From Tubiluchus corallicola (taxonomy: Eukaryota; Animalia; Priapulida), in contig JAQGDQ010000522.1 in assembly GCA_030141605.1 (NCBI GenBank), forward strand, positions 1-64,000: a stretch of DNA of 64,000 bases, written 5' to 3'. The notes beneath the pieces were generated by a model. It had not been told where the DNA came from. It ran no database searches and worked only from the letters and a program-made list of their open reading frames with translations. The position numbers were made by a program, and so were the translations under genes. Positions 7,601 to 19,600 of this stretch are shown piece by piece; the stretch's first letter is position 1, and each line of letters opens with the position of its first letter.

Positions 7601-10600
7601 AAGAAAATTCTTCATAATTTCCAATTACATTTTTGCTTGCTTAGTGAAGTGTGAGCTGCGAATGCTCTGACTATTTGTTAATTTTTTGATTTAAATATGA
7701 TCTAAAACGCTTAAAATTTTTTACTTAAAGACAGAACGATAAAATGACTGCGCTTAACGGTGATCGTGGGAGTTTAAATTTTCAAGTTACTGATGCAATC
7801 TCTACATGCAATAAGACAAAATTTCAAGACGGATTTTTAAGCTTTGTTGACGAAGCGTTTTCTTGTAACGTTCCAGGGTTAATAATAGCTATATATTTTA
7901 CTGCTAACAGATGGCAGTGCACAGTTACAAGTTGTACCAAACACTAACGATAAATCAACGTACGCCAATGAATCTAAACAAGTTTGCGTGGTATGATTTT
8001 CCGATAATCATCGAATCGATAAGCATCCCTAGTGGTCAACAAGCATATAACTGTGCAAATCTATTTACAAGCTGGGTGTCTAGATGCACGCCCGATTTTC
8101 CGGAAATGTTCAAAATAAACTAAAAAGAATCGTGCAAGGTATGCTTAAAGATATGCAAAAAAACTTACAGTTGGTCAACTGGCTTGTCTTCTGTTTGTAC
8201 ATCTTCTGCAATGAAAGAAACAACAAAAAATTAAAAGAGGTAAAAATTTTTGAAGAAAAAAATCGACGATAATGTACTAAAGCCACATAGCATGCTTCTA
8301 CAAAAGATACGGTAGTTGCCGGTATCTATTATACCGTACATTTGATGAAATTGTTGTACTAAAACACAAAAGTTCAAAAAAATCCAGTGAAAAGATTTTC
8401 CTAACATTACATGAAGACGTTGAACAAATGCATGATTACGCACAACGTAAAGCAATGTTCTCCGGAGCAATTAATCTTTAAAAATAACAATGGAGATTTC
8501 ACGCTTCGCTGAAACACGCAAACTATTAGTGATTACATTCATATAATGTAAGTAATAGACAAACCTGGAGATTATAACGTGCTGATGTATGGCATACATG
8601 CAAATAGACGTGATGACCTCAACAATGGATTCCACATAAACTTCTGATGTAATCTTGCTGAACATGCAAATGGATGCGGTGACCTCAACAATGGTACAAG
8701 ACCTTCGTATGATTATTGGCATAAACAATGACTTCTGATGCAATCATGCTGAACATGCACATGGATGTGGTGACCTCAACAATGGATTCCAGAATTATAT
8801 CTTGACATAAACTTCTGATGCAATCATGCTGAACATGCAAATGGATGTGGTGACCTCAACAATAGATTCCAAAATTTCATCTTGAAATAAACTTCTGATG
8901 CAATCATTCTGAACATGCAAATGGATGTGACATCCTCAACAATTGATGCAAATGGCTGTGACGACCAGAACAACGGATGCTACGCTTCTATTCATTGCTG
9001 GTGTAAACATCAATTCTGGTGTACAAGATGCCTTTTTGTAATTATGTGGACCACGTACAAGTGCAATTGATTTGCAACTTCAAGCAAGGAAATCAGGCAT
9101 CTATGACATTACATGTGTGCGTGGTCGTGCATGCGATTAAATTACGATGATCTTGCAACTGGATATAGTTCAGATAATGCCGATGGTCAGTGGTCAATTG
9201 ACGATGGGTGTCGTTTCTGTGCTTGCCAAGTGATACTGCTCAGCAAATCAGCTCGTATCATTCAAAATTGTAGTTAACAGCTACACCTTGGAACGTTGCG
9301 GGTTCTGACATGGATATATCCATGACTTCAATGGCTAACTTACTAATACGTCAACATATTTAAGGTTTCTGACCGGGCGCTACCACGAAAAATACCGATT
9401 GCAGTTACACCAAACTGATTAACGCTAGACTTGTTACTACACGTTTGTGCATTAATACTCAAAGGTAAGCAGACTTCGTAACTTACAAAATTTCTAATAC
9501 CGGATTGTAAATGAATAAATGTCAGTTAGTATTAGTTGGCAAAAAAAAAGAATTAATGTGACAGGAAGTAACAAAGCAAATATAAATCGTTTAATTTCAT
9601 CAGGTGATTAAGGTAAATCATGCCCCTCGCTATTCTAAAGAATTGCCATGGGTAAATAACTCAGGTAATTAAATGTCCATAGTCATGTGAGGCCGTAGCT
9701 CCATATCATCAGTAAAGCTGGGTTCACTAATGCTTCCTTGTAGCGTACTACCATCAGTGTCACTCGATCTATCCAGGTCACCCAAACTTTTACACCTGAT
9801 TGCATTATCTTTTAGACCAAAGACGTATTCTTCAGCCCTGTATGCTGTTGGATGCAGCATCATAATGGGGAGTGGAGCATGCTTCACTTCTGCTTCAACT
9901 TCGGTAAACTCTCCCACGCTGCTGTAATCACTCAGATCTTCATCATTTGCTAATGGCGCAAAGAATGCCTTCTCGACCAGTATCGGTTTGCGAATCACCG
10001 TTTCTTCTTCACTGCTGCTATCTGCGAAACCTATTTCATCATCGGTTCCCTCGGCTGCGGGATTCTTAGTAGCGACGACGTCTTCTCCGCCTCTCCCTCT
10101 AGTGGCTTTCAGTTCTTCGGGGTGCAAGACGGGCATGATCTGAATGAAGTCAAAGTGACTGATTCTTGACAAATTTGGATTACTACGAGTCCTGAACCTA
10201 AAATCTCCTCTAGATGGACCCTGAGACACATGCTGCATGCTGAGGTATAACGACTTTTGTTTGTTAAGACTGGAAGGTGAACTTAAACTCACATCATGGG
10301 ACAAAAGCTCTTTCACTTGTAAGTCGTCTTCACTTAGGCTGTCCGATGACGCAGACTCAGGTGATGGCACTTTGCCATGCCTGGATTTTCTAGGTGATTC
10401 TCTGTACCAGTCTACAACTTCAATCTCGTCTATGAATTCTGAAGATTGTGTAATGTGTTTCTCAACAAATGCTACTTCAGCTTCCTGCTTAGTATTCGCA
10501 TCTTTTGTTACATATCCCCCATTTCCATTCACGGCATGTTTGTTCCATCCAACTATTTTTTTAAACATTTTCCCAATACCTGTCTTTTGCTTAGTCTTCT

Positions 10601-16600: not shown

Positions 16601-19600
16601 TTTTGCCATCTGCAAGAACAATCTCATCTTCATATGTTTCTTTTTCACCAAGCTGTATGCCGTTTTCGAGGAAAACCACATCTGGTGATTCACTGGTTCT
16701 ACCAAACAATTTTTCCCTGGACAGAGGTTTGGACAAATCACCGATTTCAGCAAATGTATATTCTCTTTGTATATAAACTGTCGTTGGGAAGCATTCCTTT
16801 TCACCAAACAAAATATTTCGCTCCGAAAATTCTACATCTGGTGTATCAACAAGTTTTTGTAAATCAGCAGCTCCCTTTTCTACTGTAATATCTTGTTCTA
16901 CGGCAACATTATCTGGTGTTTCCTCGAGCTCATCTATAAAAATGCTTGGCTCCAAGAAAACTAGTTCTGGAAACGATTCAGCAACGACATCGGGAAATTC
17001 TTCGACCTTGTCCAATATAATGTCCGGTTCAAGAAATGCTGCTTGAGGCAAATGTGATTCTTCTAGTAAAATATCTTGTTGTACGAACATGGCACCTGGT
17101 GAAGTTTGCAACTTTTCTTCTAGCATTAAATCTTGTTCTATCGAAACTAATGGCAAGACTAGAAAGACAATGTCTGGTAACTCTCTGACATCGTCAAGTA
17201 AAATTTCTTTTTCCAAGTAAACAATTGTTGGCATTTGTGCCGTCTTGGCTAGTATAATTTGTTTGCCCATGAAATCCACACCTAGCAACTGTTGGCCTTC
17301 ATCTTGGAGTATCTCTTCTTTTAAGAAGTCATCAAATAGTGAAGCGTCGCTTAGTAACTGAACAGTTTCTGGGTGCGATGCTTCTTCATCAAGTAAAATG
17401 CCTGAATAGAGAAGAAGAAATGTTTGTGGAAATGAATCTGCTTCAAATAACCTGTCTTTCGCTTGTTCTGGAGGTGCAGCAGCGAACAACGTCTCCGCCA
17501 TACTGCGTCTCAACTGATGCAATACTGGTTCTGCATTCCTTTCTTGCGATTCATCAACATCTAATGCGAACAAAGACTCGGCTCGACTTAACCGCAATGG
17601 CGCATTAATCGGTTCTACAGTCGCCTCAAGTCCTTCCTCGTGGCTGTATGAAACTAACGGGTGCAGGAAAACAACGTCTGGTCTGGCGTCTGCGTCAACA
17701 ATTATAACACCAGTAGGACGAGGTGCACCAGGTAGATCAAGAAAATTTGGCTTAGCTAAAACTTGCAATTTATCGTATTCTACATCTACAGAATCTACTG
17801 TGGTGGGAAAATATTCAGGGTCGTCCAAAATAACGTCTTGTTCCAAAAGCAAAGACTCTGGAAAAGGTGCAGCATCAGCGAATTTAAAAATTTGGGGTAA
17901 GACTGTATGGGGAGTTTGCATGGATGGGTCACATTTTCCTAATGGTACAATATCTGGAAAATGGGGTTTCCTTGACAGAATTACATTTTCAAGGAACAAA
18001 GTATGATCTGGAGAAACTGCCGAAAAACCTGGCCGATCTAGCTCACCTACCTCAGGATAACCAGGAATAGCTAAATGACAAAGAAAAACGTTTTCGGGGA
18101 AAGGTTTGTTCTTGTCAAGCGAAATTTCTTGTTCTAGAGTAACACTTTCTGGAAACAGTTTGATCTGGTCAAGTAAAATTTCTCGTTCCAAATATACAGT
18201 TTCTGGAGAAAGAATAGTTTCCCCTAATATAAATCTGGGAACACCTCTTTCCAAACCAATGCCAACGGGCTGTTGAATATCAACCTCTAAAGTTACATCG
18301 TCTTTAAAGAGAAGCTGAGAAGCCAAAGACATTTTTGCATCAGAAGGCAATGGACAAGAGTCTTCATCCTCATCTTCAGCCCTATCAAAGCTAACAGTAC
18401 TTGTAGTTTCTGATTCTACAGTGACTTCAGTAGTTTCCTTTGCACTGGGTACAGGAGCATGTACGAAAAAGCTGGAACTATATTCTGTCAGCTCAGGCAT
18501 ACGATGTTCGAAGGCATGCTCGTCGCTAGCAAAGTTCGATATGAACAATTCCGCAACTAAATCTGTCCTTCTCTGATTGTCTGCTTCCGTCGCAACCTTT
18601 CCATCCTTCTCGGGCAACACAAGATGATAACTAGTTGCATAATGGCGTAGTCGCAACCGTTCTAGATCAGCGCATGCTGTTAAAGAAAAAATCATGCACA
18701 ACTATCAAACATATTAGTAAAAAAACGTGGGACGGTTGTTAACAAGGGGTTCACAATAACCAGATTAAATTTCTTCATTAGCAGATGTGGTCCAAATAAG
18801 TGTAATGCTCGAATCATTTCTTGGGAATTTTAATCACAGAATGAATAAAACCAATAGAAGGATGTATCTTAACAGTGGCGGCTCGTGTATAGGAGCTGTG
18901 CAACTGCAGCATCCCTTATTTTCACTCAGTACTATCGATAATATTCAATAGAATAAGCGTTTTTTTATTTAGTTCTTTCTTTATACATGTACGGAACCGG
19001 AGCACCTGAGGGTAGTACTGTTTACTTCACAGTGCAGCACAGTGCGCTACAGCAACGCGGTGTTTTTTAACTGCTATTGAGAAAATAAAGTTGAATTGAA
19101 TTGACAATTGTTTGATTGTTGTGCGCATGCAGCCATGTGCACAGTACTGTACCTCACACAGTTTGTTGCCAATTGTCACGCGCTTACCATGAATGGATTA
19201 TAAGTTTGAACTGCGACAATTTAGGTTATTAGTAAGGAAAAAATATCTTTTTGTTTAGGATTTTATCATGTTTACGTGTAAACTTCCGTATGTTTATTTG
19301 TTTAAAATTACAGTTACAAATTACGACATTAAAATTACATACGTTTGTTTCGTTTTACACAGTATTAAAACAATGGCTAAAAATTTTCTGAAGCAGCACC
19401 CCACGAATTTTAGCAACAGCCGCCACTGTATTTTAATATTAATTATTGTAATTAAGATGAAAAACTGACATTTCAGTGGTGCCTGCTGACAATTTCAGTC
19501 ACAATGATAAGAACCGTCAACCAACAAGTAAGAAGAAAAATCGTTGAAAAAATAAATTCACAAGATTTTGTTACTCACCAAAATACCTTGATCAGAAGAC

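Follow-up and report, generated by a model that had tools for sequence, protein, structure and literature searches.

In this study, we identified a 9-kb open frame that is probably an alternative last exon of a titin-like gene in a 64,000-nucleotide (nt) stretch of DNA from the priapulid Tubiluchus corallicola (assembly GCA_030141605.1, contig JAQGDQ010000522.1, positions 1 to 64,000 of the forward strand; hereafter, the window). The giant frame lies on the minus strand, within a 28-exon chain that encodes immunoglobulin (Ig) domains and linkers rich in P, E, V, and K (PEVK), between the exon that ends the eleventh Ig domain (Ig11) and an exon of 37 nt. It is under purifying selection at the protein level and, to judge from its sequence, is an old, maintained coding exon that is real and functional. 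For its role as a last exon, we infer the use of the acceptor at 18676, cleavage after a downstream ATTAAA, and a function in muscle.

Extent and selection of the giant frame

The stop-to-stop frame extends from 18701 to 9669 on the minus strand (3,010 codons), and the remaining five frames across the same DNA hold 73–314 stops each. The chance of so long a stop-free run at the local base composition is approximately 1e-90. The first phase-1 AG past the upstream stop lies 25 nt into the open frame and belongs to an acceptor (ttaacag/C at 18676, AG at 18677) preceded by a polypyrimidine tract. From this acceptor to the stop (9669–18676), the giant exon comprises 9,008 nt and 3,002 codons. Its phase matches that of the donor at 20172, the end of the Ig11 exon, which is also phase 1; the 37-nt exon (8169–8205) is entered in phase 1 and left in phase 2. 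An acceptor at 18314, which scores better than that at 18676, was rejected because its phase 0 is incompatible with the phase-1 donor. The candidate polyadenylation signal, ATTAAA at 9595–9590, lies 74 nt beyond the stop and is followed by GU-/U-rich sequence (9541–9595 in all); it is the sole AATAAA or ATTAAA between the stop and 8205. Inside the frame, there are only two of these hexamers, whereas synonymous shuffling gives 6.8; a count this low was reached in 3 of 500 shuffles. An earlier note on this DNA had described a phase-1 acceptor opening about 3000 codons that end in a stop and ATTAAA, and its coordinates and phases were right.

Selection on the encoded protein is seen in three modules of 72 residues (starting at residues 331, 721, and 988), which align without gaps and have cores that are 58–75% identical. 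The copies differ at 38–46 of 72 third positions and at only 17–20 first or second positions. In pairwise comparison, the proportion of synonymous differences (pS) is 0.71–0.83, near saturation, and that of nonsynonymous differences (pN) is 0.23–0.25, giving uncorrected pN/pS values of 0.30–0.33 (bootstrap 0.19–0.47). The sole pair allowing correction has a nonsynonymous divergence (dN) of 0.28 and a synonymous divergence (dS) of 2.2.

Two sequencing runs, X1 and X2, were compared with the window as contigs; 15 of 54 joints, 12 of 890 loose ends, 16 of 5,596 pieces, and 40 of 293 differences were listed. X1 covers introns and has no spliced joint among those listed, and it is therefore read as DNA from a near-identical animal. 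Eighteen of the listed X1 differences fall within the frame, and 9 of these are silent, compared with 22–27% expected (p 0.008–0.03); the four listed at residues 2919–2943 are all silent. Since the X1 depth in the frame is 0.6–58, compared with hundreds to more than 200,000 in the flanking repeats, the frame is single-copy.

Splice routes from the Ig11 exon

The second half of Ig11 (20172–20304, minus strand; X2 piece 20172–20269) ends in the phase-1 donor that would be the branch point of two routes. The 28-exon model that skips the giant frame reads 1,606 codons without a stop, and the 23 upstream exons joined to the giant exon read 4,357 codons with no internal stop. X2, which is guessed to be RNA from a related animal, is 88–95% identical to the window in the Ig exons. 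Its contigs join 8169 to 6337, 5304, 4183, and 1642 in turn, giving four spliced joints at the model borders downstream of 8205. A loose end at 8208 agrees with the last bases of the Ig11 exon in 9 of 10 letters, to which a shared CAG is added (13 letters in all); it does not fit the intron, and it supports the skip route from 20172 to 8205. The in-phase splice from Ig11 to the 37-nt exon, as the earlier note had it, has RNA-type support.

For the route into the giant exon, an X2 contig matches the frame across 98 nt at 87% (11280–11377, minus strand, residues 2433–2465; rough expectation value (E) 6e-25), close to the 88–95% of the X2 Ig-exon pieces. This is a hint of giant-exon transcription in a relative. 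X2 leaves most of the frame uncovered at 85% likeness; this gap does not count as evidence of absence, and contigs reveal neither transcript ends nor levels. A search of sequencing runs listed no run recorded as RNA that contains the sequence, a result that is uninformative as to expression. X2 cover is also present at 17875–18094; a 34-letter loose end at 18094 matches the window at 21 of 30 letters at best and was left unused.

We propose that the donor at 20172 appears to splice to the 37-nt exon, in which case the Ig chain continues, or would alternatively splice to 18676, in which case 3,002 codons would be read to the stop and polyadenylation would occur near 9580–9560. Two acceptors would compete for the Ig11 donor, a strong distal one at 8205 and a weaker proximal one at 18676, with the latter coupled to polyadenylation. 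In the short isoform, the N-terminal Ig region (the Z-disc end, by analogy) would remain, the part from Ig12 onward would be lost, and the protein would end in a strongly acidic, largely extended tail measuring approximately 1 micrometre if wholly unfolded, at the 0.35 nm per residue used in PMC12063666. By analogy, the tail would most likely be a charged spacer or a soft spring located in the Z/I region. Gain or loss of a 54-nt unit could tune the length of the tail, and one partner may dock repeatedly, at each of the three conserved modules of 72 residues.

Several observations weigh against a terminal exon of this kind. The joints and loose ends listed include no 20172-to-18676 junction; of the isoform switch proposed in the earlier note, the selected coding frame, the Ig/PEVK host, the skip route, and the anatomy of a terminal exon are supported, and this junction and cleavage near 9570 are the missing parts. 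An X2 contig crosses the donor at 20172 unbroken and continues for 17 unplaced letters, which together with 13 letters of the next X2 contig make 30 and are read as the overlap of two skip-route contigs. Had a second junction been abundant, a break in the contig at 20172 would be likely, and the giant route is therefore presumably rare, absent, or pruned in the X2 sample, a sample that is itself 5–12% divergent in the Ig exons and whose RNA status is a guess. The acceptor at 18676 is weakish, scoring 3.9 in the lower part of the host acceptor range (leave-one-out 0.7–11.2). The hexamer ATTAAA is the weaker variant and has an approximately 15–18% chance of occurring on its own; the intronic density of AATAAA and ATTAAA gives about 18% for one in any 100 nt. 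The polymorphism test rests on 18 listed sites, and no orthologue turned up for checking the conservation of the exon ends. With at most 37% P/E/V/K in 250 residues, the tail does not qualify as PEVK, so that spring behaviour is an analogy. Finally, the frame holds 7 phase-1 donor-like sites scoring at least 5, and a weak phase-1 donor (2.8) lies at 9752, 26 codons ahead of the stop.

Because of these internal donors, the frame could instead be a giant internal cassette, which we consider possible but clearly less probable. The exon would be entered at 18676 and left through an internal phase-1 donor (18047, 13970, 13259, 11420, or the weak 9752) to 8205, whose acceptor is also phase 1; such a form would add up to approximately 3,000 residues to the full-length Ig chain and may coexist with the terminal form. 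Phase-1 donors scoring 8.1, 8.0, 7.4, and 6.7 are within the range of real host donors, and large skipped spring exons are known in sallimus (sls) (PMC12063666). However, the frame has 19 donor-like sites in 9 kb (7 of them phase 1), a density no higher than that of introns (2.3–5.0 per kb), and the site at 9752 falls short of every one of the 24 leave-one-out donors, the lowest of which scores 3.5. The frame also stays open for approximately 580 codons past the last strong phase-1 donor, with the silent differences at residues 2919–2943.

A separately initiated transcript, whether a nested gene or the product of a Cronos-like internal promoter, whose translation would start at the Met at position 18500 or in a first exon that was not seen, is unlikely. 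It would fit the lack of a listed junction into 18676 and a codon usage sharply unlike that of the host exons. On the other hand, the first Met of the giant frame is residue 59, and the frame reaches approximately 67 open codons above it, starting almost at the in-phase acceptor (approximately 1% by chance), which argues against a separate promoter. The upstream intron is mostly repeat sequence.

In this intron, just 5' of the giant acceptor, the segment 18838–19809 holds inverted repeats in a nested arrangement, resembling stacked miniature transposons and covered by X1 at very high depth; hairpins formed by them could influence acceptor choice. On the other side of the giant exon, an 80-nt tandem repeat at 8596–8982 lies between the polyadenylation signal and the 37-nt exon.

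The predicted peptide and the host chain

The giant-exon peptide has a calculated mass of approximately 336 kDa, an isoelectric point (pI) of 4.35, a net charge of −354, and 5 Trp, with no transmembrane segment (best 19-residue hydropathy 1.69). Residues 157–1368 contain 26 copies of an 18-residue repeat core (0 matches in 20 shuffles). Old, degenerate copies, 11 in number, occupy residues 157–676 (16647–18206; this and the following features are on the minus strand), and 14 of the 26 form a young in-frame tandem array of 13.6 x 54 nt, or 18 residues (14597–15328; 94% matches, no indels). The 72-residue modules are at residues 331–402 (17469–17684), 721–792 (16299–16514), and 988–1059 (15498–15713). 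An acidic, Ser-rich, non-repetitive half follows (residues 1371–2640, 10755–14564), in which Ser, Glu, and Lys (S+E+K) make up 29.7%; the FoldIndex-type charge-hydropathy value is negative in most 200-residue blocks, and the region is predicted to be disordered. The C-terminal 360 residues (9669–10754) are more basic and contain two KSLxDL motifs, a pattern picked post hoc after being noticed. PP1, AKAP, and RxxS motif patterns are no commoner in the peptide than in shuffles. The peptide is acidic and repeat-built, as described in the earlier note, and its Ig-free character is confirmed: the giant frame has no I-set match in Pfam, none with a profile built from the host Ig domains, and no match in the PDB.

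No Pfam family scored above its cut-off across 3,001 residues; the weak match to LbH_EIF2B (E 7e-4) reaches 20 bits, compared with a cut-off of 54. The 18-residue unit parses as three hexapeptides, and an AlphaFold2 model of the near-perfect array is a beta-solenoid with one coil per repeat and a predicted local distance difference test score (pLDDT) of 66. The degenerate copies do not fold in AlphaFold2 (pLDDT 32). In structural comparison, the solenoid model gave a best Z of 14.3 with a root-mean-square deviation (rmsd) of 7.4 Å over 277 residues, left-handed, right-handed, and leucine-rich repeat (LRR) solenoids being tied, and it had no Foldseek match at E 0.001. AlphaFold2 gives confident solenoids for 32 of 78 random perfect repeats (PMC11795689). 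Because of this tendency and the failed control with the degenerate copies, the fold was set aside as evidence; a beta-solenoid of 18-residue repeats is an open lead from a model that is not trustworthy.

The earlier note had not recognised the peptide, and our homologue searches likewise gave no accepted relative. The most sensitive search, with residues 100–1120 only, returned 0 matches among 1.84 billion representatives. The single match among 7,975 scored candidates was rejected, as it had 21% identity over 6% of the query and shared periodicity with an unrelated 18-residue repeat. An Atlas search with residues 300–830 gave a best score of 0.80 and a recognition of 915, which is chance level, and the 72-residue module matched 0 of 325 metagenome candidate stretches.

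The giant exon has a GC content of 40.0%, compared with 52.3% in the host exons. First-position GC is alike (57% in the giant exon and 59% in the host exons), while third-position GC is 29% and 59%, respectively, with an intron GC of 36%. The CpG observed/expected ratio is 0.59 in the giant exon (9672–18674), 1.05 in the Ig exons, and 0.90 in the introns; the depletion is possibly due to local methylation. The composition shows a different codon or mutation regime. The earlier note had suspected an AT-richer exon of different origin or regime; the lower GC and the different regime are there, but the low GC is confined nearly wholly to third positions and so gives no evidence of foreign origin. 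A 9-kb coding exon with intron-like third-position GC is of a type that gene finders may miss.

These values also bear on two further explanations of the giant frame. That it is a formerly coding exon, now silent or rarely used and so far undecayed, is very unlikely. Its third-position GC below that of introns and its CpG ratio would fit, and half of the listed polymorphisms alter a residue; against this stand 9 kb without a stop, current polymorphism skewed to silent changes, a young array that grew in whole codons, and the matching piece in X2. Least probable is that the frame was inserted as part of a mobile element or virus, or was acquired horizontally, and has no link to the host transcript. 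Although the composition is unlike that of the host exons and no animal homologue was found, Pfam gave no family above its cut-off, the frame is not bordered by long terminal repeats, whether direct or inverted, its X1 depth is single-copy beside the flanking repeats, and the most sensitive search (residues 100–1120) returned no match.

The window lies inside the host gene, both ends of which fall beyond its borders; an N-terminal Z-disc region and C-terminal Fn3 or kinase domains, as in I-band titins, would lie outside it. Upstream of the giant exon, 23 exons (20172–63424, minus strand; 1,355 codons) encode 11 I-set Ig domains and P/E/V/K-rich linkers. Downstream, the exons 6337–6172, 5304–5112, 4183–4018, and 1642–1453 (1453–6337, minus strand), supported by the spliced X2 contigs, encode Ig12, Ig13, and the start of Ig14. 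A profile made from the window's own Ig segments agrees with the 11 upstream domains counted in the earlier note and finds two and part of another downstream, so that the host within the window has 13 complete I-set Ig domains and the start of a 14th. The usual strand-C tryptophan is absent from Ig5 (52761–53165) and Ig13 (4018–4183).

Four small PEVK-like linker exons (43102–43059, 42220–42175, 37520–37356, and 32340–32219; 32219–43102 overall, minus strand) reach 71% P/E/V/K per 100 residues; they are short, and there is no long PEVK domain. Joining the exons at 44326 and 33184 directly yields a stop, so that the transcript needs at least one of the intervening PEVK-like exons. The donors of the four linker exons deviate from the consensus, a common trait of cassette exons.

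Based on its architecture, we call the host titin-like, of the I-band type. A titin chain ranked top in the PDB for Ig7, Ig8, and Ig10, but each score is summed across the domains of a multi-domain chain, and other I-set proteins are close behind. Two Ig queries gave no scored relative (0 of 663 and 0 of 27 candidates, proteins of up to 2,000 residues), and an Atlas search with host Ig returned generic I-set clusters. In the metagenome search with an Ig query, 2 of 362 stretches matched, both in generic Ig-chain loci (L001 and L002) that do not match the giant exon. L002 (1–10298) is a eukaryotic multi-exon Ig-chain gene on a metagenome contig, with 26–58% identity to the host Ig domains.

A minisatellite of 29 x 21 nt at 5400–6017 leaves long frames open on both strands; its minus-strand frame (6099–5107) enters the Ig exon 5304–5112, but X2 splices across it, and it is hence intronic there. 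An intronic (AG)n run and several minisatellites are found at 24228–24900, 45030–45367, 48659–49495, 58558–59111, and 62559–63069.

Comparison with known titin-type exons

The vertebrate titin exon 48 (Novex-3) is a large exon with a stop and polyadenylation signal in the N-terminal Ig region, and it yields a truncated isoform while contributing more than 2,000 residues; it carries six Ig domains (I18–I23) in about 7 kb (PMC13649281). Its large unique segment is approximately 30% S+E+K (PMC6098106 supplement). Novex-3 also has a dimerising, coiled-coil part at its N-terminus. The giant exon resembles Novex-3 as a large exon with an acceptor, stop, and polyadenylation signal inside an Ig chain, skippable in frame, as predicted here from sequence, and the 29.7% S+E+K of residues 1371–2640 is like that of the unique segment. 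In contrast to Novex-3, it has zero Ig domains in 9 kb, its repeats are of 18 and 72 residues, and no sequence similarity was detected. Distance from the Z-disc end is not comparable, as the host gene starts beyond the window. The Novex-3-like architecture of the earlier note is thus retained for the splicing layout and given up for the Ig content. Lacking Ig domains and any detectable homologue, the giant exon is not Novex-3.

Kettin is an N-terminal truncated product of Drosophila sallimus (PMC6098106 supplement; also PMC13322953), and sls also yields a short isoform, ended early by an alternative stop, that is used in a muscle-type-specific manner (PMC9886281, PMC11081514). The giant exon would likewise give a truncated variant from an invertebrate I-band titin-type gene. 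However, Ig domains and linkers continue to the end of kettin, whose largest unique segment has 200–300 residues according to the supplement of PMC6098106, whereas the last 3,002 codons here are Ig-free, without Ig-linker repeats up to the C-terminus. The Ig content therefore separates the giant exon from kettin as well as from Novex-3.

Sallimus exons 31 and 32 are multi-kb, Ig-free, PEVK-rich internal exons that are included or skipped and set the spring length, exon 32 accounting for 1,700 residues (PMC12063666). The giant exon is also a multi-kb, Ig-free exon in an invertebrate titin-type gene; unlike them, it ends in a stop, and its 37% at most is under the 40% PEVK threshold. Hexapeptide periodicity and the weak LbH_EIF2B match recall left-handed beta-helix (LbH) proteins (LpxD, GlmU, and eIF2B-epsilon), but the bit score falls far short of the cut-off, the rmsd to LbH chains is 11–12 Å, and the degenerate copies are unfolded in the model. 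Traits of mobile elements or endogenous viruses (domains, terminal repeats, and multiple copies) were not found in the giant frame. In giant-exon ankyrins, which belong to another host family, one huge exon gives a cytoskeletal protein a long and extended additional segment that is poorly conserved.

In titles and the starts of abstracts, we found no Ig-free giant terminal exon in an invertebrate titin; work on annelid, crayfish, and nematode connectin may bear on novelty. A more far-reaching possibility, which we hold to be doubtful, is that this lineage independently built a Novex-3-type switch with a new 3,000-residue Ig-free cap, in which approximately 26 18-residue units would stack as beta-solenoid rods between three docking modules, followed by an acidic spring, and the young minisatellite would tune the rod length. 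If true, such a solenoid-rod cap would bring a new mechanical element to the titin family. The three strongly conserved modules could be used as baits for a sarcomeric partner.

Why titin genes retain a large truncating terminal exon has been called a longstanding mystery (PMC6098106). If the giant exon is indeed terminal, it would join Novex-3 and kettin as a third example, one with an unrelated, Ig-free cap. Such a case would suggest that selection acts on the truncation as such and that new repeats can supply the cap anew.

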